From sequence record NZ_CP014126.2: 64,000 bases of DNA. The stretch is one strand, 5' to 3'. Source of the stretch: a plasmid. Made by a program: the position numbers and the translations under genes. Of this stretch, positions 5,413 to 18,707 are shown in pieces (the first letter of the stretch is position 1; every line of letters begins with the position of its first letter). The notes under the pieces are model-generated. The model searched no databases. It was given only the letters and a program-made list of their open reading frames with translations, and had not been told where the DNA came from.

Positions 5413-5661
5413 GCTGTGGTTTATGTGGAATGCAATTTAAACAAAAAAATAAGTTACCATTCCTCTGAAGTTTATTTTCTGAACAGGAATTATTCAGCCT
5501 TGAACCACTTCGGTATGCTTACTGGCAGGGAGGAAAGTTGACGGGTGGTAAGACATAGCCGGAAAATCGATTTCCCCGCCGGGATTTAATCTGCCATGCT
5601 TATTCTGAAGCCCTCAATCGGGCAATGCGCTTTTATCTTTCACTTTATGCAGGAAGAAATA

Positions 5662-6660
5662 ATGATAAAAAATTACAGAATCCCGGGACTGACCGCGGTG
5701 GCATTTCTCCTCATAAGTACCATCGCAGGTGCTGCAGAAGCGCGCTGGACGTTTGACGGCGATATCCACAACAATTCCCTTGCTGTCAGTCCCGATGAAA
5801 AAACGGCGGTGGCGTCCTACAGTGAGCGCTCAGACGTGGTGGTCTATGATCTGGCTGCCGGGAAAGTCAGAAAGGTGATGAAGGGCTACGTCACCCCCCG
5901 TAATGCACTTTTCTCTCCGGACGGTAAGGCCATATTTCTTTCTGACAGCAGTCTCGGCGTAGTCAAAAAAATCAGCACCGGGACGCTTGACGTGGCGGCC
6001 ACGCTGCCGCTGGGGCCCGGGGCATTCGGCACGGCCATAAGTCGTGACGGTCAGCGACTGTATGTGAATAACGAGGCCGCCAGCACGCTCTCGGTGTATG
6101 ACCTTACACATGACCGGCCCATTGCAGTTGTGACGGGTTTTGCCCAGCCCCGTCAGGGCATTAAAATCAGCCCGGACGGCAAAACCGTCTACGTCACCAA
6201 CTTTAAGGGCGATAAAATTACCCTGGTTGATGCCGTGACGGGCGACATTCGCGGCGAGATAACCGGCTTCAGCAAGCTGCGCGCCATTTCTGTCAGCGCA
6301 GACGGCCGCACACTGTACGCGGCTAACAGCGGCAGCAACACAATCGCCGTGGTTGACACGCAAAAGCACGTCATTACGGCAACCATTCCCGTGGGTCAGG
6401 ACCCTTACGGTGCCGCGCTGACGCCGGATAACCGCTATGTTTACAGCGGCAACCTTGGCGACAACAGCCTCTCCGTTATTGATACCGCCGCCGGTAAGGT
6501 GGTGTCCACCGTCACCGGACTGGATGCGCCCCGTCAGGCGATTGTCTTCAACAAGGACGGTACCCGCGCGTGGGTGCTGAATAAAGACCTCAGCATTGCG
6601 GTGGTTGACCTGAAAAAGAACCGTGTCATGGCCACGATTAAAAGCCCGCCGCAGACCTGA
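5662..6660 (+). CDS. secreted YVTN-family beta-propeller repeat protein
   Basis: Signal peptide MIKNYRIPGLTAVAFLLISTIAGAAEA. Repeated S/TxDG(K/R)xxYV(T/A)N blades: SPDGKAIFLSD, SRDGQRLYVNN, SPDGKTVYVTN, SADGRTLYAAN, TPDNRYVYSGN, NKDGTRAWVLN. An RBS-spaced ATG is at 5662; the track ORF starts at 5596. Confidence 0.75.
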   Translation: MIKNYRIPGLTAVAFLLISTIAGAAEARWTFDGDIHNNSLAVSPDEKTAVASYSERSDVVVYDLAAGKVRKVMKGYVTPRNALFSPDGKAIFLSDSSLGVVKKISTGTLDVAATLPLGPGAFGTAISRDGQRLYVNNEAASTLSVYDLTHDRPIAVVTGFAQPRQGIKISPDGKTVYVTNFKGDKITLVDAVTGDIRGEITGFSKLRAISVSADGRTLYAANSGSNTIAVVDTQKHVITATIPVGQDPYGAALTPDNRYVYSGNLGDNSLSVIDTAAGKVVSTVTGLDAPRQAIVFNKDGTRAWVLNKDLSIAVVDLKKNRVMATIKSPPQT

Positions 6661-6810
6661 CGCGAAACCTCCCTTACTCCAGCGCAGTGACGATCCTTCG
6701 CAAAGTGGGGTGGTTAATCACTTTTATAGATTTATTTTAGCTAAATAACCTGTTTTAAAGATTTACTCTGACATGCCTATAATCTTTCTGTCTACTCAGG
6801 AGATTCCGGC

Positions 6811-7971
6811 ATGAACGATAAAATATTCACCCTGCATAACGGTGCGCGTCCGCTGAGCGCGCTGAGCAGCCCGAAAGAGGCCATACGACAGTTCACGCCT
6901 AACTGGTTCGCCGCGACCATGGGGACCGGCATCCTGTCGCTGTCTCTGGCGCAGTTCCCCTGGCAGGTTCCGGGATTGCGCCTTGTCGCCGAGGGGCTCT
7001 GGATGTTTAACATCCTCCTGTTCAGCGTCTTTGCCGTGATGTATCTGGCCCGCTGGGTGATGTACTTCGGAGAGGCAAAGCGCATTTTCGGCCATTCAAC
7101 CGTGTCCATGTTCTTCGGCACCATCCCGATGGGCATGGCGACCATCATCAATGGCCTGCTGGCGTTCGGTCTTCCGCGCTGGGGCGCAGACGTTATTCAG
7201 GTGGCACACGCCCTGTGGTGGCTGGACGTGGCGATGTCGCTGCTGTGCGGCGTGTGCATTCCCTACATGATGTTTACCCGGCAGCAGCACAGTATTGACC
7301 AGATGACTGCCGTCTGGTTACTGCCGGTCGTGGCAGCCGAGGTCGCGGCGGTCAGCGGCGGCCTGCTGGCGCCGCACATTGCTGCCCCACACGCGCAGCT
7401 CGGCATCATTATTACCAGCTACGTGCTGTGGGCGTACTCCGTGCCGGTGGCGCTGAGCATCCTCGCCATTCTGCTGCTGCGTATGGCGCTGCACAAGCTA
7501 CCGCACGAAAGCATGGCGGCCTCAAGCTGGCTGGCGCTGGGTCCGATTGGCACCGGCTCGCTCGGCATGCTGGTCATCGGCGGAGATGCGCCCGGGGTGT
7601 TTGCCGCGGCGGGCATGCCGGAAATCGGTCACATCGCGCAGGGCGTGGGGTTCGTTGCCGGCATTCTCTTCTGGGGCTGCGGCCTGTGGTGGATGCTGCT
7701 GGCCACGCTGATAACCGTGCGATACTTCCGTGAAGGCATCCCGTTCAACCTTGGATGGTGGGGCTTTACCTTCCCGCTGGGCGTGTACACCGTGGCCACG
7801 CTCAAGCTGTCTACCCTGATTGACCTCGCATTCTTTAAAGGCTTCGGTGCGCTTCTTGTCGTCATACTGGCGGCCATGTGGCTGCTTGTCGCGGTGAAAA
7901 CAGTGCGTGGGGCATGGAGCGGTAAACTGTTTGTTTCTCCCTGTCTGGCAGGCCTGGATCGGAAGCCGTGA
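6811..7971 (+). CDS. TDT-family (TehA / C4-dicarboxylate / malate / Ssu1-type) anion transporter
   Basis: 386-aa polytopic membrane protein. Hydrophobicity pattern of 10 transmembrane segments; the N-terminal region PNWFAATMGTGILSLSL is typical of TehA-like proteins. Confidence 0.6.
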   Translation: MNDKIFTLHNGARPLSALSSPKEAIRQFTPNWFAATMGTGILSLSLAQFPWQVPGLRLVAEGLWMFNILLFSVFAVMYLARWVMYFGEAKRIFGHSTVSMFFGTIPMGMATIINGLLAFGLPRWGADVIQVAHALWWLDVAMSLLCGVCIPYMMFTRQQHSIDQMTAVWLLPVVAAEVAAVSGGLLAPHIAAPHAQLGIIITSYVLWAYSVPVALSILAILLLRMALHKLPHESMAASSWLALGPIGTGSLGMLVIGGDAPGVFAAAGMPEIGHIAQGVGFVAGILFWGCGLWWMLLATLITVRYFREGIPFNLGWWGFTFPLGVYTVATLKLSTLIDLAFFKGFGALLVVILAAMWLLVAVKTVRGAWSGKLFVSPCLAGLDRKP

Positions 7972-8567
7972 GTGAAACCAGCACATCGATGCAGGACTCG
8001 TTTTTACGCGAGGAATGCCTCGCGGCAGTCACCGCGCCGCATGTGGCCGCGCTGAATCGCTGGGTCAGCGGCCAGCGTCAGGCCGGTGCAGAACTGCCGT
8101 GGTTTGATCCGGCTGACGGCGGGGTTAGGGCCGGACTGCTCGTCCTGCTGCAGTCGCCGGCGCGCAGCAGCCCGTCACCGCGGTTTGTGTCGCGTGATAA
8201 CCCGGGGCCGGCCCAGCAGAACCTTGGGCGGTTTCTGGCGGAAGCCGGTATTTCGCGTCAGGACAGCGTGCTGTGGAATACGGTGCCCTGGGTCAGTCAC
8301 GGGCTGCAGAAACGGCCGTCAGCGGCGGACATCCGCAGAGGCTGCGCCTTGCTTGAGGACGTGCTGGCGTATCTGCCCGCGCTGCGCGTGGTGGTGCTGG
8401 CCGGTGCCGTAGCGGCTCAGGCCCGCGGGACGGTCAATCATCTGTACCCCGGCGTCCCCGTGTTGACGATGCCGCACCCCAGTCCGCTTTCGCTCTGCAC
8501 GAGTCCGGCGGTGACGGAAAACATTCGCCGGGTACTCTGCGAGGCACGGGCTGCGCTGGCAGGCTGA
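7968..8567 (+). CDS. uracil-DNA-glycosylase-superfamily fold protein with divergent active-site motifs
   Basis: Architecture matches family-4 UDG: motif-B-like MPHPSPLS near the C-terminus and a G-x-FLxxAGI...V(L)WNTVPW block. The canonical GE(A/G)PG motif A is replaced by LQSPA. The start GTG overlaps the stop of the transporter gene. Confidence 0.45.
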   Translation: MSETSTSMQDSFLREECLAAVTAPHVAALNRWVSGQRQAGAELPWFDPADGGVRAGLLVLLQSPARSSPSPRFVSRDNPGPAQQNLGRFLAEAGISRQDSVLWNTVPWVSHGLQKRPSAADIRRGCALLEDVLAYLPALRVVVLAGAVAAQARGTVNHLYPGVPVLTMPHPSPLSLCTSPAVTENIRRVLCEARAALAG

Positions 8568-8586
8568 GGGCGCCAGCAGAATAATA

Positions 8587-8615
8587 CTGACAGGTTTTGC
8601 AACCGGCTCTATACT
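8587..8615 (+). promoter_or_regulatory. sigma70-like promoter (CTGACA-17 nt-TATACT) driving the riboswitch-led operon
   Basis: Hexamers with 17-nt spacing sit ~10 nt upstream of the riboswitch aptamer. Confidence 0.45.
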
Positions 8616-8625
8616 CATATGACAA

Positions 8626-8680
8626 GGTGATGGCGTTCCACCTTTCCCAACCGCTCCGTTCCGGAGCTGATGACGCCTGA
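8626..8680 (+). ncRNA. fluoride riboswitch (crcB RNA motif) aptamer
   Basis: GGUGAUGGCGUUCCACC-uuuCCCAACC-GCUCCguuccGGAGC-UGAUGACGCCU matches the conserved GGnGAUGGnGUUCnnCC...AAC...stem...UGAUGAC(U/G)CCU layout. The loop GGCGU can pseudoknot with ACGCC. It sits 85 nt upstream of ppaC. Confidence 0.8.
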
Positions 8681-8764
8681 TGCGACTCTTGATTTTCAGG
8701 AGGTGCGTCAGGCCGTCCTTACTTTCTTCCCGGCCTGCGTACTTCCCTCTTCGGGGAGAGACCT

Positions 8765-9673
8765 GTGATACACGTTTTTGGCCACATCAATCCTGACAGC
8801 GACGCCATCTGCACGGCCTTCGTCACCGCGCACTGGCTGACCGGGCGCGGCATGGACGCCCGCGCATGGCGTCTTGGCGAAGCTAACCGCGAAACCCATT
8901 TTATCTTTGACACCGCCGGACTCACGCTGCCGCCACGGCTTGATATTCCGCTACAGGATGAACGGGTCTGGCTGGTCGATTTCACCGAGCCGGCGCAGGG
9001 ACCTGACGACCTGCTCCGGAGCAACATCGTGGGGATCACTGACCACCACCGGCTGGGCGGACTGATAACGCAACTGCCGCCGGAGGTACACATACGCCCG
9101 CTTGGCAGCAGCGCCACGCTGCTGTGGCTGCTTATGAACGCTGAAGCGCGACGCACGCTGCCCCCGACGCTTGCCATTCTTCTGCTGGGTGCACTCCTGA
9201 GCGACACCGTGAATCTTCGCTCGCCCACCACGACCGAAGACGATATCCGTTCGGCTACCGAGCTGGGCGTACTGTCCGGCGTAAACCGCAGAGCCTTCGC
9301 CCGTGACCTCCTTACGGCAAAAACTGACGTCAGCGGCCTCAGCGCACAGCTGCTGCTGGACAGGGACCTCAAGGCCTTCGTCATTGCCGGCACTGACGTG
9401 CGCATCGCCCAGATTGAGGTCAGCTCCCCGTCACAGGTTGCCACCGTGATGGACGACCTGCTCGCTGCCCTGGCGTATCTGGCAGACCAGTCGGGTGCTG
9501 GTTTGGCGGTGCTGATGCTGACCGACATCCGGGCCGGGTTTTCAACGCTTTATTTCGCCGGGCGGGAGAGCGTTAACGCGGCCTCCTGCTCCGTACCGGG
9601 TATGCTCAGCCGCAAAAAACAGCTTCTGCCGTGGCTTGAGTCCCGCCTCAACCAGAACGGGAGTTCATTATGA
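8765..9673 (+). CDS. ppaC: DHH-family, family II (Mn-dependent) inorganic pyrophosphatase
   Basis: N-terminus (M)IHVFGHINPDSDAIC is DHH motif I. DHH motif: GITDHHRLG. The C-terminus SRKKQLLPWL matches the PpaC C-terminal signature. GTG start follows a GGGGAGAG RBS. Confidence 0.8.
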   Translation: MIHVFGHINPDSDAICTAFVTAHWLTGRGMDARAWRLGEANRETHFIFDTAGLTLPPRLDIPLQDERVWLVDFTEPAQGPDDLLRSNIVGITDHHRLGGLITQLPPEVHIRPLGSSATLLWLLMNAEARRTLPPTLAILLLGALLSDTVNLRSPTTTEDDIRSATELGVLSGVNRRAFARDLLTAKTDVSGLSAQLLLDRDLKAFVIAGTDVRIAQIEVSSPSQVATVMDDLLAALAYLADQSGAGLAVLMLTDIRAGFSTLYFAGRESVNAASCSVPGMLSRKKQLLPWLESRLNQNGSSL

Positions 9674-10095
9674 CCTGCTACACCCATGCATTGATACTTG
9701 TGAACGATAAAGACGACGGCACCCTCCTGCTGAAGCGGGCGGTCGCGCTGGCGCAGCCGCTCGGCATGAAAATCACCCTGGCCCACATCAGCGACGACTA
9801 CCGGGAAATGAACTACGTGTCCGACAGCCTGATGGACGACGTCGTGTCGGAAGAGGTGCTGAAATCCAAAGCGTTTATGAGCGAGCTGGCGGCCTCCGTG
9901 CCTGAGACGGTAGACATGCGGGAGCTGGTGACCATGCGCCGCTTTGAGGACGTGGAGAAGTGCATCGCTGAGCTGGGCGTGGACCTCGTGCTTGCCGGGC
10001 ACCGAAACCGCTTTATGGGAATGCTGACGTCCCGCTCGGCGGAATACATTAACCACCTCACGGTGGATGTGCTTATCACTCACCTGAATGACTGA
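9670..10095 (+). CDS. universal stress protein (UspA family)
   Basis: 141 aa. HAL(I)LVNDKDDG...LAHISDD...GVDLVLAGHRNRF...VDVLITH resembles the Usp ATP-binding fold pattern. Overlaps the ppaC stop. Confidence 0.7.
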   Translation: MTCYTHALILVNDKDDGTLLLKRAVALAQPLGMKITLAHISDDYREMNYVSDSLMDDVVSEEVLKSKAFMSELAASVPETVDMRELVTMRRFEDVEKCIAELGVDLVLAGHRNRFMGMLTSRSAEYINHLTVDVLITHLND

Positions 10096-10110
10096 ACCGG
10101 GAGAAACTCT

Positions 10111-11400
10111 ATGCGCTTTACACTGGATAACGTGACCGCCCGTGAAATTCTTGACTCTCGCGGCAACCCCACCGTTGAAGTCGAAGCCCGGACCGTGGAC
10201 GGAATGATGGCGCGGGCCTCGGTGCCTTCCGGGGCCAGCACCGGCTCGCGCGAGGCCGCTGAGCGCCGCGACGGCGACGTACACCGTTTTGGCGGTAAAG
10301 GCGTACTGGATGCTGTCAGGACGGTTAATACGGAAATCTGCGAAGCCTTGCGCGGCAGGGACGTGCGCGAGCAGCGTCAGCTGGATAACATCATGCTGGC
10401 GCTGGACGGTACGCAGAGCAAGAGTCGGCTGGGTGCCAATGCCATTCTGGGCGTGTCGCTGGCGGTTGCCCGGCTGGCGGCACAGGCCTCGCACGAGCCG
10501 CTCTGGCGCTACCTGGGGGGCCTGCAGGCGAACCTGCTGCCCGTACCGTGCATGAACATTATCAACGGCGGCGTGCACGCCCGCGGTCAGGGCGCGGACT
10601 TTCAGGAGTTCATGATAGCGCCACACGGGGCACCCACGCTGCGCGAGGCCGTGCGTCAGGGCAGCGAGGTCTACCAGGCGCTGCGCCAGATCCTGCTGGA
10701 CAAGAACCTGTCCGCGGCAGTCGGCGACGAAGGCGGTTTTGCGCCCGCCGTATCGTCGAACCGCGACCCGCTGGCGTTTATCGTGCAGGCCATTGAGAAG
10801 GCGGGGTACAGGCCCGGAGAAGACATCAGCATCTGCATGGACCCTGCCTCAAGTGAGTTTTTCGCAGACGGAAAATATCATCTGCGCACGGAGGGCAGTG
10901 CGCTGAGCGCGGCGGAAATGACGGCGTACTACGGCGAGCTGATGGACCAGTTTCCCGTCATTCTGCTGGAAGACGGCCTGGCAGAAGATGACTGGTCGGG
11001 CTGGAAGCATCTGCACCAGCAGCTTGCGGGCAGGGCCGAGCTGGTTGGTGACGACCTGTTTGTCACCAACGTGAAGTACATCCAGCGCGGCATTGACGAA
11101 AACCTCGCCAGCGCCGCATTGATTAAACTCAATCAGATAGGCTCGCTTAGCGAAACGCTGGACGCCGTGGCGCTCTGCCAGCGGCACGGGTGGGGCGCGT
11201 TCATGTCCCACCGCAGTGGGGAAACGACGGACACATTTCTTGCCGACCTCACGGTAGCCCTGCGCGCGGGACACCTGAAAACCGGTGCGCCGTGCCGCGG
11301 CGAACGCGTGGAAAAGTACAACCAGCTGATGCGCATTGAGCAGGCGCTGGGTGAGGACGCTCACTATGCGGGGCTTCATGCGTTTGTGCGCCGCACGTAA
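10111..11400 (+). CDS. eno: enolase (phosphopyruvate hydratase)
   Basis: 429 aa. N-terminus (V)TAREILDSRGNPTVEVEARTVDG; SHRSGETTDTFLADL catalytic region; IKLNQIGSLSETLDAV signature. Confidence 0.9.
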   Translation: MRFTLDNVTAREILDSRGNPTVEVEARTVDGMMARASVPSGASTGSREAAERRDGDVHRFGGKGVLDAVRTVNTEICEALRGRDVREQRQLDNIMLALDGTQSKSRLGANAILGVSLAVARLAAQASHEPLWRYLGGLQANLLPVPCMNIINGGVHARGQGADFQEFMIAPHGAPTLREAVRQGSEVYQALRQILLDKNLSAAVGDEGGFAPAVSSNRDPLAFIVQAIEKAGYRPGEDISICMDPASSEFFADGKYHLRTEGSALSAAEMTAYYGELMDQFPVILLEDGLAEDDWSGWKHLHQQLAGRAELVGDDLFVTNVKYIQRGIDENLASAALIKLNQIGSLSETLDAVALCQRHGWGAFMSHRSGETTDTFLADLTVALRAGHLKTGAPCRGERVEKYNQLMRIEQALGEDAHYAGLHAFVRRT

Positions 11401-11443
11401 CAGATCCACCGGACGGCCAGCGGCCGGCACAGGAGCACAGTCT

Positions 11444-12145
11444 TTGGCACCTTCAACGCTGATTCTCCTGCGCCATGGCGAAAGCCAGTGGAACCGGGAA
11501 AACCGTTTTACCGGATGGACAGACGTGCCGCTGACGGACCGGGGGCGGCAGGAGGCTGACCGGGCCGGTGACGTGCTGCGGGACGCGGGCCTGCTGCCCG
11601 ATCGGGTCTTCACCTCGGTGATGACGCGCTGTGTTCACACGGTCTGGCGGGTGCTGGACCGTCTTGGCCGCAGCTGGACGCCCGTGGACAAACACTGGCG
11701 GCTGAACGAGCGGCACTACGGTGCGCTGCAGGGGCTGAACAAGGAAGCGGCTGCCCGGATGATGGGTGCAGAGACCGTCCGGCTCTGGCGCAAAAGCTTC
11801 AGCGGCATTCCCCCCGCGGACGCAGGGGCTCCGGCGCAGCTGCGTCGGGACCCGCGCTACAGCCGCGTTGCGCTGGCCGACCTGCCTGCGACGGAAAGCC
11901 TGGAAATGACGCTGCGTCGCGTCATGCCCTACTGGCAGCACGCCGTGATGCCGCAGATACTCTGCGGAAGTACCGTTCTGGTCGTGGCGCACGGCAACAC
12001 GCTGCGCGCCCTGGCCGCCTTCCTGGACGGCATGCCACACGACAGCTTGGCACAGTTGCATATCCCGACCGGCGTGCCGGCCGTATACCAGATGGATGCG
12101 GCCGCACAGGTCGTTTCCCGTTATGTTCTGAATATAAAAAAATAA
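11444..12145 (+). CDS. gpmA: 2,3-bisphosphoglycerate-dependent phosphoglycerate mutase
   Basis: LILLRHGESQWNRENRFTGWTDVPLT is the histidine-phosphatase RHGE motif. The probable start is TTG at 11444, 8 nt after AGGAG. The track ORF (from 11336) overlaps the eno 3' end and is probably over-extended. Confidence 0.75.
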   Translation: MAPSTLILLRHGESQWNRENRFTGWTDVPLTDRGRQEADRAGDVLRDAGLLPDRVFTSVMTRCVHTVWRVLDRLGRSWTPVDKHWRLNERHYGALQGLNKEAAARMMGAETVRLWRKSFSGIPPADAGAPAQLRRDPRYSRVALADLPATESLEMTLRRVMPYWQHAVMPQILCGSTVLVVAHGNTLRALAAFLDGMPHDSLAQLHIPTGVPAVYQMDAAAQVVSRYVLNIKK

Positions 12146-12150
12146 AAGGA

Positions 12151-12531
12151 GTGAACGTGAATCAGCTTTTTGCTGTCATCACCGGCGGTGCTTTAGGGTG
12201 TGTTATCCGCTGGCAGCTGGGCGCGCGCCTGAACGCGCTTTTTCCGGACCTGCCGCCGGGGACGCTGCTGGTCAACCTGCTGGGAGGGTTTATCATCGGA
12301 GCGGCGCTGGCGTATTTTCTGCGCCATCCCGGCCTCGATCCGGCCTGGCGGCTGCTCATTACCACCGGGCTGTGTGGCGGAATGACGACCTTCTCCACGT
12401 TCTCGGCTGAGGTTTTTGCCCTGCTGCAGTCCGGCAGCTATGCCTGGGCAGCCGCCTCGGTGCTGATACACGTGCTGGGTTCGCTGGCCATGACGGCGGC
12501 CGGATTTTATATCATGACGCTGTGTGGTTAA
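12151..12531 (+). CDS. crcB: CrcB/Fluc fluoride ion channel
   Basis: 126 aa with four transmembrane segments and the GGxTTFSTF signature (CGGMTTFSTFSAE). GTG start follows AGGAG. Confidence 0.85.
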   Translation: MNVNQLFAVITGGALGCVIRWQLGARLNALFPDLPPGTLLVNLLGGFIIGAALAYFLRHPGLDPAWRLLITTGLCGGMTTFSTFSAEVFALLQSGSYAWAAASVLIHVLGSLAMTAAGFYIMTLCG

Positions 12532-12546
12532 CCCGAGGGAGACCTT

Positions 12547-12566
12547 AGTGCAGTGACCGCTGCACT
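12547..12566 (+). terminator. stem-loop (agtgcag-N6-ctgcact) immediately 3' of crcB
   Basis: 7-bp inverted repeat 16 nt after the crcB stop. Confidence 0.4.
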
Positions 12567-12664
12567 GAGGTATATTGTTCAGAAGCGCTCTCTGCAGGCC
12601 AGACCTGACAGGGTTTACGCTTGTAATGCTTCCCGTACACCTGAGGCGCTGCTGTGAAAGAATT

Positions 12665-13078
12665 TCAGGCCTGCCTGTTCTGGTAAAGGTCCCAGCGATT
12701 GCCGTAGATGTCCTCAAATACGACAACCATTCCGTATTCTTCCTCCCGTGGCTCCTGAAAGAAGTGGACGCCTTTTGCCTTCATAGCATTGTAGTCGCGC
12801 CAGAAGTCGTCGGTCTGCAGGAACAGAAAAACCCGTCCGCCGCACTGATTGCCGATAAAGCCTTCCTGCCGGTCGTTCGACGCGCGGGCAAGAAGAATAG
12901 CACAGTCGCTGTCAGGGGCCGGCGTCACCACGACCCAGCGCTTACCCGGCTGCGGCGTGTCTTCAATGAGGGTAAAGCCCAGCTTATCGGTGTAGTACTC
13001 AATTGCACGATCGTAGTCATCGACCACGACCGCCACGTATCCCATACATCGCTTCTGTTTTCTCATCTGCTGCTCCAT
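12665..13078 (-). CDS. VOC-family (glyoxalase / bleomycin-resistance fold) protein
   Basis: MGYVAVVVDDYDRAIEYYTDKLGFTLIED...ILLARA...GRVFLFLQTDDFWRDYNAMKAKGVHF is typical of a paired betaalphabetabetabeta module. Confidence 0.65.
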   Translation of the reverse strand: MEQQMRKQKRCMGYVAVVVDDYDRAIEYYTDKLGFTLIEDTPQPGKRWVVVTPAPDSDCAILLARASNDRQEGFIGNQCGGRVFLFLQTDDFWRDYNAMKAKGVHFFQEPREEEYGMVVVFEDIYGNRWDLYQNRQA

Positions 13079-13191
13079 CAGTTACGGCATTACGCCCGTT
13101 ATAATCAGCTTTATATCAAATACGGCGTTCAGTTATCTGTACTGATTCTGCACTGATACCCTCAGACCTGACATTGTAAGCATCTGAGCAG

Positions 13192-15363
13192 TCAGGATTG
13201 TGGGCCCAATCTTGTAAGAGCCTGCTCAACCTTTTCAGCATCCTGCTCCAGTATGGCTCTCTCATCGGGAGTGAGCGGGACCTCTTCGAGGTAACGCCGG
13301 ATGGATGCTTTACTCTCCAGTATCAGCCCGCGCGCGCTATCCTTCAGCAGGTTAAAATCGCAGCCGATGCAGGCCATCCGGTGCGGGCAACTGCTCCAGA
13401 AGGGGTTCGTACAGTATGAGTCGCCCAGATCGTAGTAGGTCGCGGGCCCGGACAGGCTGGCGGCTTCAGGATCGTGGTCAACCAGCACGCTTATCATATG
13501 AGCGACCCTGTCGGCTTTGACGAACGAGGCAGCCAGCTGAGTCGGGCGGATGCGAAGATAGTGCATTGTAGACTGGGGCGTTGAATGGCCCGTCCACTGC
13601 ATCAGTTCGTACAGCGACATGCCCTGCGGTACGCTCGCCAGCGCGGTCACGGCTGAGGCCCGCCCCCGGTGGCTGGTTATCATTCCGCCACTGTCTTCAC
13701 AAGGCACGCCCGCTCTTGCGCATAGCATCGGTATCACGGTGCGGTTGAGGATAGCGCTGCCGGCAGGCTTACCCCGGTACTGAAACAGAAGCCGGACTTT
13801 CTCACCGGTTCGCTCGTCAGCGAGCAAAGCCTGTTCTGCCGGACGCTCATCCAGCCATATGTCGACGTATTTTTTCACCACGGCCGCCACCGGTTTAACA
13901 AAGGCTTTTGAGGTTTTTCCGGCAGGGATATGCAGGTAACACAGGGTTCCTGCCGGGATGATACTTCCGTCGTCCTTCACGATATCGTCCGCCTGCGGCG
14001 CGATGCACCCGGTTGTCAGGCGGAGCAGTTCGTTCTTTCTTACCCCCGCATGGGTCCAGATGACGGCCATTGCCTGCAGCATGGCCAGTGGATAATGTAT
14101 TTCAGTGAGCAGATCTTCCTGACGCAGATTGAGGCTGGCCCAGATGAGCTTCAGCCAGACCGGATCGTCAATAACACGGGGATTGACGCCGCGACGGAAC
14201 AGCGGCGTATCCGGTGTGGAAAGATGGCGGGCAGGGCTGAAGTGCAGGCGCCCCCAGCCCCAGTTTTCGTAATCAATCATAAAACGGCGCAGAGAATAGA
14301 TAAAATGCGCCCTGGAATGCGGCATCATGGGCTCGCCGGAGCGCACCGATTTGCCGGTGCCCCTTTCCGTGCCCAGCTGAAGCTCATCCACGTTCATCCG
14401 GCCTACCGCCGCAATGAAGCTGGCGCAGGTTTCCATTGTCCAGTCTGCCGGTTCCCGAACCTCCGGATGCTCCTTTTTCAGCCAGAGGCCGCAGCGCAGA
14501 ATAAAGCTGTACTGGCTTTCACGGGTGCGCGGCCTGAGCACCGACGTTTCCCGCCAGCGCCGGCACCAGTGCACCCAGGCCGGATCGACGCCTTCGACCG
14601 GCTTTTCGTACCATTTTTTATAGTTTCGCATCCTCACCGGGGCGCTGATAATCCCCAGTGCGGCAAGTGCATGTGAAACGCGGCCGACGTAACGGGATAT
14701 TCCCTTGTCTGTCCCGCTCTGGGCGCGCCAGAGGAGTTCAGGCGTAAACGTTTCAAGCCGGGGATCCCTGTTCATGATCATCAGTGTTGCCAGTATACCC
14801 GAGACATGATTTTTCTGGCTGGTCGGGGCATAACCCAGCGACGTCAGCGTATCAGTCAGCCGGTCCAGCTCCTGGTGATAAAAAGCCTGGCCGAAGATGG
14901 CAGAAGCATAGAGCGCGGGTTTACGTATATCAGGCAGGCTGAGCGGGTCATGCAAATCAGCCAGATGCCAGGCAAAAGCGGCCATTAACGGACGGCCCTC
15001 CCTGACTTCCCGGCACAGCGTCAGCCAGCGTTCCTGCGGCCAGCACCAGCAGGGCATGCCGTCTGCATGCATTTCGCGCAGCAATCCGGCTATCACCAGC
15101 CCCGTGATTTTGCTGCCGCATCCGCTTCCGGCGGCAATGTCCATCAGCGGCCTGATGAGGTCCGGCACCGGCTTCGTTCGCAGCATACGGGACCGGCTGT
15201 GAGCGCTGCTCAGTGCCGTCCGTTCAGCGAGGGTCAGTGACGCCTCAAGCCGGTATTCAGTCATGTCGAACGGATGCCGGCTGTTTTCAATCGGTGTGTG
15301 TGGGCTCATGTTATTTCTCTGTTCTGAAAATGAGGTTCGCCATCCTGATATCTGCCGTTTCAA
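13192..15363 (-). CDS. large tyrosine recombinase (723 aa) with a long N-terminal extension
   Basis: The C-terminus carries ...ITSHRGRASAVTALA... (HxxR) and ...GHSTPQSTMHYLRI (H...Y nucleophile). It overlaps the upstream small recombinase gene by 53 nt, which suggests an operon. Confidence 0.7.
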   Translation of the reverse strand: MKRQISGWRTSFSEQRNNMSPHTPIENSRHPFDMTEYRLEASLTLAERTALSSAHSRSRMLRTKPVPDLIRPLMDIAAGSGCGSKITGLVIAGLLREMHADGMPCWCWPQERWLTLCREVREGRPLMAAFAWHLADLHDPLSLPDIRKPALYASAIFGQAFYHQELDRLTDTLTSLGYAPTSQKNHVSGILATLMIMNRDPRLETFTPELLWRAQSGTDKGISRYVGRVSHALAALGIISAPVRMRNYKKWYEKPVEGVDPAWVHWCRRWRETSVLRPRTRESQYSFILRCGLWLKKEHPEVREPADWTMETCASFIAAVGRMNVDELQLGTERGTGKSVRSGEPMMPHSRAHFIYSLRRFMIDYENWGWGRLHFSPARHLSTPDTPLFRRGVNPRVIDDPVWLKLIWASLNLRQEDLLTEIHYPLAMLQAMAVIWTHAGVRKNELLRLTTGCIAPQADDIVKDDGSIIPAGTLCYLHIPAGKTSKAFVKPVAAVVKKYVDIWLDERPAEQALLADERTGEKVRLLFQYRGKPAGSAILNRTVIPMLCARAGVPCEDSGGMITSHRGRASAVTALASVPQGMSLYELMQWTGHSTPQSTMHYLRIRPTQLAASFVKADRVAHMISVLVDHDPEAASLSGPATYYDLGDSYCTNPFWSSCPHRMACIGCDFNLLKDSARGLILESKASIRRYLEEVPLTPDERAILEQDAEKVEQALTRLGPQS

Positions 15364-16312
15364 TCGCGCCAGCCATCCGGGCAGCCAGGTCCCTGCCAGA
15401 AAGATGAATATAAATCTGTGTTGTGGTCAGGTCGCGGTGTCCTGCATAGGTGGCAAGTTCGTGCAACTTCCAGCCCGCGCGGGCAAGGTGTGTGAGTCGC
15501 AGGTGCCGGAAGGTATGGGTTGAGATGTCCGGCATCCCAGACTCAAGCGCCCATTTCCGTACCGTTTTGCTCCAGGTCCAGAATGAAAGCGGCCCGCCCT
15601 GATTACGATCGGACTCAGAACGGAACAGGGCACCTCTTACGATTCCGGTCCGCTTCATCTGCATAAGGTGCGCGGCCAGCACTGGCACTACTGCCGGGCT
15701 GTAACAGACAATTCGTTCACGCCGGCTCTTGGTGGTTTCTGCCCGGATGCGGATGAGCCGGTGAGCAAAGTCGAAGTCGTCAATACTTAGCGAGGTAATT
15801 TCAGACCGACGCAGCGCGCCGTAATAGGTTAATGCCAGCATCAGGCGGTCACGCAGTGGGGAAGCGGCGGCATGATAAAGAAAACACTGCCACTGCGCAT
15901 CGTCAGGAATGCGCGGCAGCTTTACAACGCGGGGAACCAGTCCCCGGCCGGAACTCAGCATGCCGGGCGTGCCGGATCGGGGCAGCGGATTGACCGTGCA
16001 AAGATCCAGGTACATGAGAAAGTCATACCAGAGGCGGATCGCCGACAGGCGAAGCTGGAGCGTGGCGCTGGCCGCGGAAAAAGGCATCCCGGGTAACTGA
16101 GGACTAATATAGGCAGCCAGGTCTTCAAACCGCGCCTTTTCAGGTTTAATTCCGTTCTGGCTGCAGAACGCAAAGTAATGACGGAGGGCATTGCGGTAGG
16201 CTGTTAGCGTGGCCTGCGCCCGCCCCAGATCGGATAACAGTTGCAGCCAGCGCTCTGCCAGCAACAGAACGTGTTCACTCGGTGGAATCAGCATTGCATT
16301 CTCCTCTGACAA
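15311..16312 (-). CDS. tyrosine recombinase, XerD-like (333 aa)
   Basis: C-terminus HTFRHLRLTHLARAG...LATYAGHRDLTTTQIYIHL gives the complete R..HxxR..H/Y catalytic set. It is the first gene inside the right end of the element. Confidence 0.8.
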   Translation of the reverse strand: MSEENAMLIPPSEHVLLLAERWLQLLSDLGRAQATLTAYRNALRHYFAFCSQNGIKPEKARFEDLAAYISPQLPGMPFSAASATLQLRLSAIRLWYDFLMYLDLCTVNPLPRSGTPGMLSSGRGLVPRVVKLPRIPDDAQWQCFLYHAAASPLRDRLMLALTYYGALRRSEITSLSIDDFDFAHRLIRIRAETTKSRRERIVCYSPAVVPVLAAHLMQMKRTGIVRGALFRSESDRNQGGPLSFWTWSKTVRKWALESGMPDISTHTFRHLRLTHLARAGWKLHELATYAGHRDLTTTQIYIHLSGRDLAARMAGAIETADIRMANLIFRTEK

Positions 16313-16364
16313 CAGCTTTGCTGTTCAAAGTTTACTCAATCAATGTTGCATTCCACGTAACTTA

Positions 16365-16607
16365 CTAGAGCGCGTAGTTTGAACTAAAGACGTGCACACG
16401 CTCGGCAAAATCCTGATTTTTTATCTGGAACCACGGCGCGCCCATTTTAATGCCCAGCTTTTTTGCGCCGGCGCTGCGCGCGATGATGCAGCCGTCATTG
16501 TTCGACAGGACGACAACGGGCTTACCGCGCAGATCAGGGCGAAACAGTGCTTCGCAGCTGGCATAAAACGAATTGACGTCGGCCAGGCCAAACATTGGCA
16601 TGATCAC
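16365..16607 (-). pseudogene. umuC: umuC 5' fragment (first ~78 codons), fused to element-derived codons
   Basis: MFGLADVNSFYASCEALFRPDLRGKPVVVLSNNDGCIIARSAGAKKLGIKMGAPWF...HVFSSNY aligns with the N-terminus of the intact UmuC (MFALADANNFYASCETVFRPDLRGKPIVVVSNNDGCVIARSAEAKRLGVKMAAPLF...HVFSSNYEL), then ends in AL-stop. It overlaps the umuD stop. Confidence 0.85.
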
Positions 16608-17053
16608 CTCCGGCGGGCTCGGGTACTGTTGAAGAACCAGGTAACCACACCGAGCAGCTGCAGCTCCTCCGGATAAATTACCGGATAGGCCGGGTTCATC
16701 GGCAGCAGTGCGAGCCTGGGCTGCAGCTGCAGACGCTTGACCGTAAATTCGCCGTTAACCTCAGCGATCACTATGTCGCCGTGAGCCGCCTCTTCTGCCC
16801 GGTCAACCACCATGACATCACCATCGCAGAGACCGAGATCCCGCATACTGTTTCCACTGGCGCGCACGAAAAAAGTTGAGGCGCGCCGGCGAATGCAGAG
16901 CTCATTCAGATCGAGTTCTTTCTCAACGTAATCCTGAGCGGGGGAAGGGAAGCCGGCGGCGCAAGGATCAGCATACAGCGGCACCCGGACACGGGGCGTA
17001 AATATGGGTGGCCAGAGCAACGTCAGCCCGGGAGTATAGTTACCCGGATTCAT
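16604..17053 (-). CDS. umuD: UmuD, SOS mutagenesis protein (canonical, self-cleaving type)
   Basis: Cleavage-site region PCAAGFPSPAQDYVE; catalytic Ser in ASGNSM and Lys in EFTVKRLQL, matching UmuD/LexA S24 peptidases. Confidence 0.85.
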   Translation of the reverse strand: MNPGNYTPGLTLLWPPIFTPRVRVPLYADPCAAGFPSPAQDYVEKELDLNELCIRRRASTFFVRASGNSMRDLGLCDGDVMVVDRAEEAAHGDIVIAEVNGEFTVKRLQLQPRLALLPMNPAYPVIYPEELQLLGVVTWFFNSTRARRR

Positions 17054-17131
17054 GACCTGATGCCCAGGCCATACTGCAGCAGTACTGCGGAAACTTTGTT
17101 GAAATTGCGCATAAAATTCCTCCTCTTATTT

Positions 17132-17151
17132 TACTGTTTATATGTACAGTA
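17132..17151. promoter_or_regulatory. LexA (SOS) box TACTGTTTATATGTACAGTA
   Basis: Perfect CTGT-N8-ACAG palindrome 80 nt upstream of minus-strand umuD. Confidence 0.85.
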
Positions 17152-17350
17152 TTATTGAGGTGAATTAATCTGGCAAGAGGGAGCGAAGCGGCCATGTATA
17201 AAAGCGAAGCCATCTGTCTGACAGAATAGGAAATTTTATGAAGGTCAGCCCGGCACTAAGTGGCCCGGCAGCTTTAACAGTAATGCAGAATGTATGTTTG
17301 GTGTGTAAGCAGTTCATGCCGGCATCGGTGAAATGACGCTTCCTCGCCAC

Positions 17351-17389
17351 GGCTGTTCGTTCCTCGCTGCGCTGCGGTACGCCTCAGCC
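17351..17389. repeat. dispersed 39-bp repeat GGCTGTTCGTTCCTCGC..CGCTGCGGTACGCCTCAGCC (copy 1)
   Basis: Near-identical (37/39) to 53807-53845, which lies inside the tra operon. Confidence 0.5.
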
Positions 17390-17508
17390 GGGCCTGCGGC
17401 GAGCGTTACAATTGCACGTTCAGGGAAAGAAATATGCAGCCCTGTTACTCTTCCGGCTTACCTATTCCGGCAACAATACCCAGCTGAGAGATGCGAACCA
17501 TAAAAGCG

Positions 17509-18189
17509 TTAATCCTTATCTGCCGGTGAGGCCTCGATAAGCTCACTACCCTGGTGATGAATATTGCCAACTTTTTTGCTGACAGGATGCCAGGTAAATG
17601 CTTTTTCCGGAACGGCTGCATCGCGGGCAATTTCTTCTGCACGCGCTGGAGACGTTTCGTCACTGAGCCATTCACGAACAGCATCAGGCGTAATCACCAG
17701 CGGCCGCCTGTCATGTATATCGACCATGCCCTGATTGCTGGCTGACGTGACAATCACGAAGCCCTCTTTGCCGTGATCCTGCCCGTACGGCTGCCTGCCG
17801 ATGGCGGCGAAGAAAAGTGGCTCCTTTTTTTTGTGAAAGATGAAGAATGGCTGCTTCTCACCACCTTCTTTCTGCCATTCGAACCAGCCGTCAGCAGGCA
17901 CGATAGCGCGGCCATGATTCCAGAGAGGCTTAAACATGCGGCCGCTCGCAGCCGTCTCACCGCGCGCGTTGATAAGTGGCTGCTTATCCCACCATTCCGG
18001 TCCGTAGCCCCAATATACCGGATCGAGGCGCAACGAATCTTCCTGTTCGTGTAGCAGTAACACTTTAGTGCCTGGTGCTACGTTAAAGCGCCCGAGAGGT
18101 TCCGGATCGAATGTGATTTCGTCCGGTGTCAGGCCGAGTGAGTCAAAATAATCGTCGCGGCTGCTGTACTGCGCAAATCTTCCACACAT
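17509..18189 (-). CDS. SOS-response-associated peptidase (SRAP / YedK-like, DUF159)
   Basis: N-terminal MCGRF with catalytic Cys2; 226 aa; conserved WNHGRAIVPADGWFEW. It lies between two umuDC operons. Confidence 0.8.
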   Translation of the reverse strand: MCGRFAQYSSRDDYFDSLGLTPDEITFDPEPLGRFNVAPGTKVLLLHEQEDSLRLDPVYWGYGPEWWDKQPLINARGETAASGRMFKPLWNHGRAIVPADGWFEWQKEGGEKQPFFIFHKKKEPLFFAAIGRQPYGQDHGKEGFVIVTSASNQGMVDIHDRRPLVITPDAVREWLSDETSPARAEEIARDAAVPEKAFTWHPVSKKVGNIHHQGSELIEASPADKD

Positions 18190-18314
18190 AGTTACCTCCT
18201 GCTGTTGATGTAAGGATAGCGACGTATACTGATATCAGGAGTATTAAATGCGCCTGTATGACGGACACCCGGTCGTTATCAGGTTCACCTCACAAGGCTG
18301 AAAAGCTGTAAATA

Positions 18315-18707
18315 ATGGAGATATTCATGGCCTTTCAGAGCCCGGCCCAGAACTACACCGAAACGCGCCTGAGTCTGGGCGATCTGGTGCATCTTTCCCC
18401 TTACTCTACCTATCTGATGCGCAGCGAAAGCGACTGTCCAGATGCTGGTATTATTAAAGGGTCCGTGCTGGCAATCGATCGCGCGCTGACACCGGCACAC
18501 GGTCAGTTAATCGTTGCCGAGCTCGAGGGAGAACTGACGCTGAGGCGGCTGCTGCTTAATCCGGTTCCTGCCCTGCAGGCGCTGGACGCGGACGAAACTG
18601 TTACGCTGCTTGATGTAAGCCATGTGCTGCCAGTGTGGGGTGTGGTTGCCTATGCCCTCACCGATGTAGCCGGAGTGGGATTTAACGGACTGGCAGGAGA
18701 TGAGTAA
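18315..18707 (+). CDS. UmuD'-like protein: begins at the post-cleavage position and has a degenerate Ser/Lys dyad
   Basis: It aligns with UmuD from GFPSPAADYV onward (AFQSPAQNYTE...). The ~24-residue arm and Cys-Gly cleavage site are absent; an in-frame TAA lies 2 codons upstream. Catalytic GDSM becomes SDCP (Ser->Cys) and VKKL becomes LRRL (Lys->Arg). Confidence 0.7.
   Translation: MEIFMAFQSPAQNYTETRLSLGDLVHLSPYSTYLMRSESDCPDAGIIKGSVLAIDRALTPAHGQLIVAELEGELTLRRLLLNPVPALQALDADETVTLLDVSHVLPVWGVVAYALTDVAGVGFNGLAGDE

Follow-up and report, generated by a model that had tools for sequence, protein, structure and literature searches.

Why do a secreted beta-propeller, an anion transporter and a protein with a uracil-DNA glycosylase (UDG) fold stand together beside a fluoride-resistance operon on a plasmid, and do the three share one task? 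The question is raised by a stretch of 64,000 nucleotides from sequence record NZ_CP014126.2 (the window, that is, the whole stretch analysed), the source of which is a Pantoea/Erwinia conjugative plasmid. An earlier note on this DNA had picked out three genes at 5662–8567 as a co-mobilised trio occupying the left 3 kb of an island. The open reading frame (ORF) listing of the window and the island limits set by an empty site agreed with that description, placing all three genes on the plus strand and making them the left 3.1 kb of the island. The genes encode a YVTN/YncE-type beta-propeller, a TDT/SLAC1-family transporter and a UDG-fold protein (hereafter UDG-like). Judged from gene neighbourhoods in many genera, the trio is one conserved functional module, neither a chance grouping nor three unrelated passengers. 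We tentatively favour, as quite possible though short of probable, the explanation that it would serve sulfite/bisulfite export and DNA repair and would have been co-selected with fluoride defence in plant-surface bacteria, as its gene neighbourhoods suggest. The sequence and the island were already known; what is new is the trio as a conserved module.

Related loci were identified by a genome scan of one genome per species with a 15-sequence subset of the UDG-like alignment, which resulted in 57 loci; the 53 species-level loci with a near-full UDG-like gene were used for all neighbour counts. The hosts included Pantoea, Erwinia, Rosenbergiella, Xanthomonas, many Pseudomonas, Massilia, Duganella, Janthinobacterium, Herbaspirillum, Burkholderia, Paraburkholderia, Acetobacter (cider species), Fulvimarina and others, with many leaf isolates among them. 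A TDT orthologue with 45–98% identity to that of the window lay within 300 nt of the UDG-like gene in 45/53 loci. Propeller orthologues (threshold at least 60% identity; observed 67–94%) were present within 5 kb in 30/53 loci and a second, longer propeller type in 7 further loci, so that a propeller of either type was found near the UDG-like gene in 37/53. One particular LysR gene occurred within 3 kb of the UDG-like gene in 30/53 loci. The order of these genes changes from lineage to lineage. In Pantoea the propeller, TDT and UDG-like genes are co-directional, with an overlap between the last two, while in Pseudomonas, Xanthomonas and Oxalobacteraceae the UDG-like gene is convergent on the TDT gene. 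Beyond TDT in Pseudomonas and Xanthomonas follow the LysR gene and then, about 1.2 kb beyond TDT, a propeller orthologue (67–74% identity), accompanied in Pseudomonas by a small secreted protein. Burkholderia has the LysR gene divergent from TDT, followed by UDG-like, DUF305 and propeller genes, with TDT and UDG-like co-directional, and in Massilia the DUF305, propeller and UDG-like genes overlap one another and are convergent on TDT. Identity between the UDG-like proteins of the different arrangement classes was only 42–54%, and it is because synteny persists at this distance and through changing gene order that the trio is read as a conserved module.

This persistence across Gamma-, Beta- and Alphaproteobacteria also bears on the proposal that the trio is unrelated cargo, in which a generic uracil-repair enzyme, a tellurite/TehA-type transporter and a lactonase-like propeller hitch-hike with the island. 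Generic names given by RefSeq and by the paper on plasmid pPV989-94 (ung, mae1 and HET-E-1) would suit such a proposal, as would the UDG-like homologs that stand alone in an E. coli island and in Sphingomonas. Beyond the retained synteny, it is opposed by the 4-nt overlap shared by the TDT and UDG-like genes, by a transporter that misses the TehA equivalog (20.8 against 342 bits) and by a UDG-like protein that lacks the features of family 4, and we consider it decidedly unlikely.

The TDT gene (6811–7971, plus strand) encodes an anion transporter of 386 residues. The predicted protein matched the whole of the SLAC1 profile PF03595 (positions 1–331 of 331; E = 3.4e-94), and its AlphaFold (AF2) model contained ten long helices at a mean predicted local distance difference test score (pLDDT) of 77; the helix count was taken from this model, as a Kyte-Doolittle scan under-counts. 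A Foldseek search with the model returned SLAC1 (7EN0) and Haemophilus influenzae TehA (3M7x) at target-normalised template modelling (TM) scores of 0.75–0.80 and 18–19% identity, while a PDB sequence search at E 0.01 gave no match between H. influenzae TehA and the transporter. Against the general TDT model TIGR00816 it scored 197 bits, below the cutoff of 237. Orthology to the tellurite protein TehA was ruled out with model NF008032 (20.8 bits, cutoff 342).

A substrate for this transporter is suggested by the genes that surround its relatives. The LysR gene is divergent from TDT in the 30 loci that have it. Its product scored best against the YeiE equivalog (388 bits) and passed the PRK10837 subfamily cutoff. 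The best solved relative was an unnamed LysR-family regulator (8sbf, E = 3e-61), followed by 7erp and 7fdf, both deposited as 'LysR family transcriptional regulator' (2e-54 and 1e-53), and by 8sbh, a chain named YeiE (1e-53); the next family, CbbR, came at 2e-37. By sequence the regulator is therefore placed in the YeiE/FinR-type, sulfite-sensing class. In Salmonella, sulfite is bound by YeiE, the activator of yeiH, and resistance to sulfite requires yeiH; homologs of YeiE are found in C. sakazakii (YeiE) and P. aeruginosa (FinR) (PMC12880088).

Two further sulfite-related genes recur near the module, each in 12/53 loci: those for SorA-like molybdenum enzymes and for the YeiH transporter. The SorA equivalog cutoff of 600 was passed by enzymes of P. 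chlororaphis and of Pseudoduganella/Massilia (656 and 644 bits); the former is encoded directly downstream of a 74%-identical TDT and the latter near the module. SorA-like genes near the module were also found in Janthinobacterium, P. graminis, Burkholderia, Fulvimarina and Carideicomes, and in several loci a cytochrome c gene adjoins the SorA-like gene. On one metagenome contig a LysR-TDT-SorA-like row is convergent on a DUF305-propeller-UDG-like row, the UDG-like protein having the E-type motif. Fulvimarina carries a YeiH-family transporter in the position of TDT beside the UDG-like gene, and one Oxalobacteraceae arrangement consists of YeiH, a binding protein and UDG-like. Other neighbours include, in P. 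graminis, an NtaA/DmoA-family monooxygenase and an ABC importer that precede an 83%-identical TDT and, in P. cremoricolorata, a TauE gene near the module. Taken with the YeiE-type regulator, SorA and YeiH in related loci suggest that the TDT protein may be a sulfite exporter similar in function to Ssu1, the sulfite efflux pump of the TDT family in yeast (PMC7336578). The earlier note had considered a second halide/oxyanion efflux route; gene context supports the oxyanion half of that idea, with sulfite as the anion, and the context evidence contained no signal pointing specifically to halide as the TDT substrate.

The promoter region of the TDT gene in the window (6721–6783, plus strand) comprises a remnant of a LysR-type box, ATAG-N11-CTAA, a conserved CCTGTTTTAA block and the promoter-like sequence TTTAAA-18-TATAAT, which matched the consensus at 10 of 12 positions in the promoter scan and has a good -10 element. 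The 150 nt upstream of TDT, in which the ATAG-N11-CTAA box is degenerate, could be aligned with the regulator/TDT intergenic regions of Pseudomonas, Xanthomonas and Burkholderia. The Pantoea/Erwinia island thus appears to have lost the regulator gene and kept a homologous promoter region, on which a chromosomal YeiE might act in trans. The fluoride riboswitch was the single Rfam match at the gathering threshold in the whole 64-kb window, and no known cis-regulatory RNA was assigned to the trio.

The same transporter could be a Mae1-like carrier of C4-dicarboxylates, supplying malate for the tricarboxylic acid (TCA) cycle and phosphoenolpyruvate (PEP) synthesis under a fluoride-imposed block of enolase, with the propeller and UDG-like genes merely linked to it. 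Databases label these proteins C4-dicarboxylate or malic acid transporters; the score of the window protein for TIGR00816 is far above that for the TehA model; a genuine malate dehydrogenase (mdh) gene lies beside TDT or the riboswitch in 8/53 loci; and fluoride-stressed P. putida was reported to be depleted in PEP and TCA intermediates (PMC11139923). The transporter names are nevertheless inherited annotation, mdh is absent from most loci and from the island in the window, and malate transport leaves the YeiE-type regulator, SorA, YeiH, the periplasmic propeller and the tight coupling to the UDG-like gene unexplained. We consider this function unlikely. The mdh-bearing loci belong to Oxalobacteraceae, Paraburkholderia and Fulvimarina (L017–L020, 9921–10901; L026, 9931–10911; L033, 2582–3565; L057, about 11447–12418), and the recurrent gene could be a second copy kept in reserve for an enzyme that anions inhibit, as with eno and ppa.

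The propeller gene (5662–6660, plus strand) encodes 332 residues; hidden Markov model (HMM) and PDB matches identify its product as a propeller, which is predicted from its N-terminus to be secreted. Its product matched the YVTN repeat model TIGR02276 over three stretches at 115.6 bits (cutoff 27.85) and also scored above the Pfam cutoffs for Lactonase (PF10282) and YNCE (PF21783). The closest solved relative was the Methanosarcina YVTN S-layer propeller 1L0Q (E = 7.7e-49), and the score against the YncE equivalog NF052280 was 63.5 bits, below the cutoff of 400. The N-terminus, MIKNYRIPGLTAVAFLLISTIAGAAEA, judged from sequence, has a basic n-region, a 12-residue hydrophobic core and an AxA-type end, and looks like a Sec signal peptide. 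A promoter-like site upstream of the gene (5538–5567, plus strand; 9 of 12 consensus matches) is a consensus match only. In P. ovata a second TDT gene (68% identity), a Lipoprotein_15 gene and a gene for a type-2 propeller form a minus-strand row (L037, 11205–14343) that contains no UDG-like gene, so TDT and a periplasmic propeller form a recurring pair by themselves.

The third gene (7968–8567, plus strand) has a GTG start that overlaps the TDT stop codon by 4 nt (GTGA) and encodes 199 residues. RefSeq start sites vary between plasmids, giving 600 nt in some (start at 7968) and 525 nt in pEP1 (start at 8043); the longer form overlapping TDT is favoured because of its conservation in the family and the confidently modelled N-terminal helices. 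The predicted protein matched PF03167 at 48.8 bits (cutoff 24.3), the match being limited to residues 80–179. HMM searches with TIGR02276, PF03595 and PF03167 thereby confirmed the YVTN, TDT and UDG families named in the earlier note and assigned none of the three proteins to an unrelated family. The structure prediction that the note had called for gave a confident UDG fold (mean pLDDT 92.5) nearest to UdgX and family 4. Foldseek returned UdgX, family-4, family-5 and family-1 structures at probability 1.00, the best matches being UdgX and family-4 UDGs (E about 1e-7, TM 0.53–0.62, 22–24% identity). A profile of 28 family sequences found UdgX and family-4 enzymes in the PDB at E about 0.005 and also aligned with the HPSPLS region of family-1 UNG (E about 0.007), in the C-terminal region only. 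A PDB search with the single sequence yielded chance hits only, for example galectin-4 at E about 0.08, and was discarded, and NCBIfam held no model matching the protein. A profile search of 1.84 billion cluster representatives resulted in 532 full-length matches at E<=1e-30, and the family extended to about 1,450 representatives at E<=1e-10. On these sequence comparisons the UDG-like protein is a separate branch of the UDG superfamily, a distinct and uncharacterised family. Two of its distant relatives (L072 and L073), which lack TDT, adjoin methionine synthase genes (metH with MTHFR, and a MetE-type gene).

The earlier note had drawn attention to LQSPA in place of GE(A/G)PG beside an intact HPSP, and profile alignment to UdgX and family 4 gave the same picture. 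LQSPA (8148–8162, plus strand; residues 61–65) is the counterpart of UDG motif A and aligns with GEAPG of UdgX; HPSP (8475–8486, plus strand; residues 170–173) is motif B, invariant in the 28 family members and aligned with HPSPLS of UNG. The motif A position reads L(Q/E)(S/A/T)P(A/G) in the family alignment and LE(A/T)PG in more distant members with the same gene context, and the glutamine is therefore a clade feature. Among the equivalents of the uracil-pocket residues of UdgX, N104 and H170 were invariant and F73 nearly so in the 28 sequences. Residues invariant across the family were P44, D47, P48, D50 and G52 of a PxFDPxDGG segment, P64, S75, W103, N104, P107, W108 and H170–P173. Features of the described families were missing: the cysteines of the family-4 4Fe-4S cluster are not conserved in the 28 sequences, none of the cysteines at 17, 126, 177 and 191 being invariant and only C177 being kept in a close subset; the segment aligned with KRRIH of UdgX, which carries the crosslinking histidine, is GLQKRPSAAD, without histidine; and the sequence contains no family-1 catalytic GQDPYH. 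The absence of an acidic residue from this part of motif A is shared by active UDGs of families 2, 3, 5 and 6. Because of that precedent and the kept pocket residues, a catalytic role is plausible for the UDG-like protein. Of the two alternatives in the earlier note, a non-canonical substrate fits these observations, and a non-catalytic role is not required by them, as F73, N104 and H170 are conserved.

Glycosylases of the UDG superfamily can act as defences, and the gene is carried on islands and plasmids, with an E. coli homolog in an integrative element beside a relaxase and a helicase. A role as a Brig1-like anti-phage DNA glycosylase or as a plasmid-protection factor of mobile elements is nevertheless highly improbable in our view: PADLOC matched none of the trio, nor the recombinases of the island, and the genes conserved beside it encode transporters and sulfite enzymes instead of defence proteins.

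These data lead to the following working model of sulfite export and DNA repair. TDT would export bisulfite trapped in the cytoplasm, as Ssu1 does in yeast and as YeiH is thought to do in Salmonella, and the secreted propeller would partner it on the periplasmic side, where it may bind or hand on the exported anion. The UDG-like protein, cytoplasmic and translationally coupled to TDT, would remove pyrimidine lesions made by bisulfite from DNA. Bisulfite deaminates cytosine in vivo and leaves a persistent dihydrouracil-6-sulfonate lesion, and dihydrouracil-sulfonate is poorly excised by yeast Ung1 and E. coli Ung (PMC3521656); candidate substrates would be the uracil left when cytosine is deaminated, or the long-lived adduct 5,6-dihydrouracil-6-sulfonate, on which ordinary Ung performs poorly. 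In the presumed ancestral arrangement a sulfite-sensing YeiE/FinR-type LysR gene would have been divergent from TDT, to be lost in the Pantoea/Erwinia island. A bolder version of this model can be stated. In it the UDG-like family would consist of DNA glycosylases dedicated to bisulfite damage, removing 5,6-dihydrouracil-6-sulfonate, uracil produced by bisulfite in single-stranded DNA, or both. A TDT-type exporter of sulfite and its periplasmic partner would be inherited together with the glycosylase gene and often transcribed with it, and mobile islands of leaf-surface bacteria would add fluoride export, giving a joint defence against HF and SO2. In that full form we regard the model as doubtful.

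The second part of the question concerns the fluoride genes. A fluoride riboswitch aptamer was identified at 8617–8686 (plus strand; RF01734, 51.3 bits, gathering score 34), preceded by a promoter-like site, CTGACA-17-TATACT, at 8587–8615 (plus strand), directly after the UDG-like stop codon; the interval that separates the UDG-like gene from the riboswitch showed no terminator-like site. The operon that follows (8765–12531, plus strand) encodes, according to Pfam, a family-II pyrophosphatase-like DHH/DHHA2 protein, Usp, enolase, phosphoglycerate mutase and CrcB. The longest ORF for the mutase (11336–12145) has a TTG start and overlaps the enolase gene, and the RefSeq gene of 702 nt starts at 11444. 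Since the aptamer lies downstream of the trio, the trio is not behind the riboswitch in the window, as the earlier note had stated; this holds for the window, and in Pseudomonas a fluoride riboswitch does precede the UDG-like gene.

Riboswitches in the related loci were located with a covariance model built from eight riboswitch hits. One was present within 8 kb of the UDG-like gene in 35/53 loci, with crcB or CLC-F in 36/53 and a second enolase gene in 22/53. The juxtaposition has been built with different genes, either crcB or CLC-F and either a family I or a family II pyrophosphatase, and the link between the module and fluoride is real, recurrent and far above chance. The plus strand of a widespread Pseudomonas island has a promoter-like site before the riboswitch, which is followed by CLC-F, by four small ORFs, DUF190 in two cases, and then by the enolase, pyrophosphatase and UDG-like genes; the ppa stop codon (TAG) overlaps the UDG-like GTG, AAGGAGG lies 11 nt upstream of that start, and no terminator-like site was found within the stretch from riboswitch to UDG-like gene. 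A shorter version consists of riboswitch, crcB, DUF190, ppa and UDG-like. Of the trio, the UDG-like gene alone is placed behind the riboswitch in Pseudomonas loci such as L038 and L045. The Pseudomonas operon further contains three conserved small ORFs of 121, 88 and 117 residues (L045, 4442–4807, 5254–5520 and 5603–5956; also in L029 and L042–L054) without a Pfam match, the 117-residue product of which looks membrane-embedded. Behind the Rosenbergiella trio (L013) stand first an orphan riboswitch (8650–8719), a copy of that in the island, and then a different, inverted fluoride operon (8845–12376) with ppaC, usp, eno and crcB at 49–75% identity and a riboswitch of its own. In Xanthomonas, Acetobacter and other loci the module has no fluoride gene within 8 kb.

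Such proximity raises the possibility that the trio is an accessory part of the fluoride response, with TDT providing additional anion or fluoride release or anion balance and the UDG-like gene belonging to the fluoride regulon. The frequencies of riboswitch and exporter genes just given argue for it, as do the UDG-like gene at the end of the Pseudomonas riboswitch operon, with its ppa overlap and Shine-Dalgarno sequence, and its recurrence in the shorter crcB version; pairing with different fluoride genes suggests repeated selection, and the Rosenbergiella trio beside a different, inverted operon points the same way. For some riboswitches, mutS is reportedly a fluoride-regulon member. Other observations speak against a fluoride function. 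The trio of the window lies upstream of the riboswitch with promoter-like sites of its own, the regulator of TDT is of the YeiE/FinR type and not a riboswitch, modules without a nearby fluoride gene exist, and fluoride operons without the trio are found in E. cloacae FRM, Klebsiella, Citrobacter and on P. dispersa plasmids. No DNA lesion specific to fluoride is known, neither glycosylases nor DNA-repair genes are mentioned in a 2024 review of genes associated with riboswitches, and in the literature searched TDT/TehA was not tied to the fluoride response beyond generic annotation. On balance we regard a fluoride-response function as a serious but doubtful possibility. In the sulfite and repair explanation, which we prefer, the fluoride neighbourhood would reflect the habitat: leaf-surface and other plant-associated hosts would meet both acid-trapped anions, HF and SO2, and mobile islands would repeatedly put the two defences side by side.

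Several points weigh against this preferred explanation. Its functional assignments are guilt by association; we infer from gene context what TDT transports, that the UDG-like protein is active and on which lesions, and why the link with fluoride should make ecological sense. The score of the module LysR (388 bits) is below the YeiE equivalog cutoff of 480, and its ligand could differ. A YeiE-like regulator, SorA and YeiH are all absent from the island and from the 64-kb window, and the model gives the propeller no proposed chemistry. The pairing of transporter and UDG-like protein is not obligatory, as 3 TDT orthologues were found without a UDG-like gene and 8/53 UDG-like loci are without TDT, as are the E. 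coli island and the Sphingomonas relatives in separate look-ups. Fluoride genes are at least as frequent as sulfite genes (riboswitch in 35/53 loci, SorA-like and YeiH in 12 each), and as the coupled last gene of a riboswitch operon the UDG-like gene is probably fluoride-induced in Pseudomonas. Finally, only 32 distinct UDG-like DNA sequences occur in the 53 loci, many being copies from recent transfer, so that the independent evidence amounts to roughly a dozen arrangements, not 53. Identical UDG-like DNA was seen across named species and genera in Pseudomonas (L042, L044–L047, L049 and L051) and in Oxalobacteraceae (L017–L020 and L022–L025), which places their fluoride/TDT clusters, too, on recently transferred mobile DNA.

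The mobility of the trio in the window is evident from its setting. Plasmids of E. persicina, E. billingiae and P. agglomerans share 99.9–100% identity with the 7.8 kb around it, and those of P. ananatis, P. vagans, P. stewartii and Kosakonia about 92%. Alignment with the intact umuC of pPagL15_3, which represents the empty site, fixed the integrative island at 5420–16365 (10,946 bp), which carries a VOC gene and a pair of tyrosine recombinase genes besides the trio and the fluoride operon. The co-mobilisation proposed in the earlier note is supported by the recovery of this entire island, trio included, at 92–100% identity in at least 20 Pantoea, Erwinia and Kosakonia plasmids. The insertion point lies between ...CTGTGG and TA(A/G)AGCGCG, no target duplication was evident at the island ends in the alignment with pPagL15_3, and a direct-repeat search revealed no att sites, the ends being taken from the empty-site alignment. 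GC content was 0.596 in the island against 0.462 in the left backbone. The island is flanked on the left by the 3' part of the plasmid umuC (4375–5419, minus strand; Pfam IMS, IMS_C and DUF4113), which is contiguous with 16366–16607 in the umuC of pPagL15_3, and on the right by the 5' part of the interrupted gene (16366–16607, minus strand), followed by umuD at 16604–17053. Imperfect inverted repeats of 13 nt were found at both termini (plus-strand coordinates): ATGTGGAATGCAA at 5423–5435 pairs with TTGCATTCCACGT at 16347–16359, 12 of 13 positions being complementary.

At the right end of the island, two tandem ORFs on the minus strand (13192–16312) encode recombinases of 723 and 333 residues, both annotated as tyrosine-type by RefSeq; the smaller matched XerC/XerD-like models, all below cutoff, and the larger had no NCBIfam and no PADLOC match. 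A VOC/glyoxalase-family gene (12665–13078, minus strand; PF00903, E = 6.3e-20) travels with the fluoride operon and has an 85%-identical copy on an E. coli plasmid. Methylglyoxal detoxification would fit this gene, as an enolase block raises upper-glycolysis intermediates, but this is only an idea. The interrupted umuDC lies beside an ORF resembling SOS-response-associated peptidase (17509–18189) and adjoins a second, intact umuDC-like pair on the plasmid (18315–18707 and 18707–19969; region 16604–19969), so its loss may be compensated.

The island itself has been published as fragment R4' (about 10.7 kb) of pPV989-94 from Pantoea vagans PV989 (Int J Genomics 2018, PMC5971314), with the same umuC insertion, two recombinases and nine cargo genes, including the trio (as HET-E-1, mae1 and ung) and the crcB-gpmA-eno-uspA-ppaC operon. 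That paper handled the genes singly under 'glycometabolism, resistance, DNA repair' and called the UDG a family 4 enzyme, without a joint function, a link to sulfite or a comparison beyond Pantoea and Erwinia; it also records two extra copies of the trio alone, beside IS110, on the P. ananatis AJ13355 chromosome (PMC5971314). Searches of the literature on fluoride riboswitch with UDG, crcB with TehA, and sulfite with UDG and exporter revealed no other relevant paper, and in the literature searched there appears to be no description of the trio as a conserved module, of its setting among sulfite genes, of the UDG family as a distinct one or of the repeated pairing with fluoride operons. Insertion into this gene has parallels, as the umuC/rulB family is a known hotspot for recombinase-borne islands. 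The rulB/umuC-targeting integron-like elements of Pseudomonas (Environ Microbiol 2014, PMC4542609) are likewise tyrosine-recombinase islands, site-specific in a plasmid umuC-family gene and carrying adaptive cargo, but have three recombinases (385, 525 and 535 aa) and a GAT duplication, whereas the island has two (333 and 723 aa) and no evident duplication.

The fluoride operon resembles that of GI3 in E. cloacae FRM (Sci Rep 2017, PMC5533749), in which the riboswitch, ppaC, uspA, eno, gpmA and crcB are homologous to those of the window and which was found experimentally to be fluoride-induced and needed for resistance. The annotated genes in Table 1 of that paper include no propeller, TDT or UDG-like gene, and the trio is therefore a separable module. 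The sulfite part compares best with the YeiE-YeiH system of Salmonella (J Bacteriol 2026, PMC12880088). Relatives of the module likewise have a YeiE/FinR-type LysR gene divergent from a gene for an inner-membrane transporter, which in some lineages is YeiH with the UDG-like gene beside or just downstream of it; the module differs in having TDT in place of YeiH and in adding a periplasmic propeller and a UDG-fold protein, and the Pantoea island has no regulator. With Ssu1 the transporter shares the PF03595 family and, in our proposal, the task of exporting cytoplasm-trapped bisulfite; the likeness is one of family membership, and the substrate of the bacterial TDT is read from neighbouring genes only. 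The UDG-like protein aligns with family-4 UDG and UdgX in the motif-B histidine and the pocket phenylalanine and asparagine, but departs from them in LQSPA as against GE(A/G)PG, in the additional invariant PxFDPxDGG segment and in a TM score of only 0.53–0.62.

Bacterial sulfite resistance was called poorly understood as late as 2026, YeiE-YeiH being the first defined system. The module described here suggests a second, widespread version of sulfite defence, in which export by a TDT transporter would be accompanied in the same cells by a specialised DNA glycosylase. If this is true, it would provide a function for an uncharacterised UDG family with 532 cluster representatives at the strict and about 1,450 at the relaxed threshold, and would assign the first repair enzyme to sulfite-induced DNA lesions, which canonical Ung excises poorly. 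The 'fluoride islands' of plant-associated bacteria would then be composite anion-stress islands, which bears on how riboswitch regulons are read and on what conjugative plasmids contribute to their hosts on leaves, in onion rot and in fermented products.

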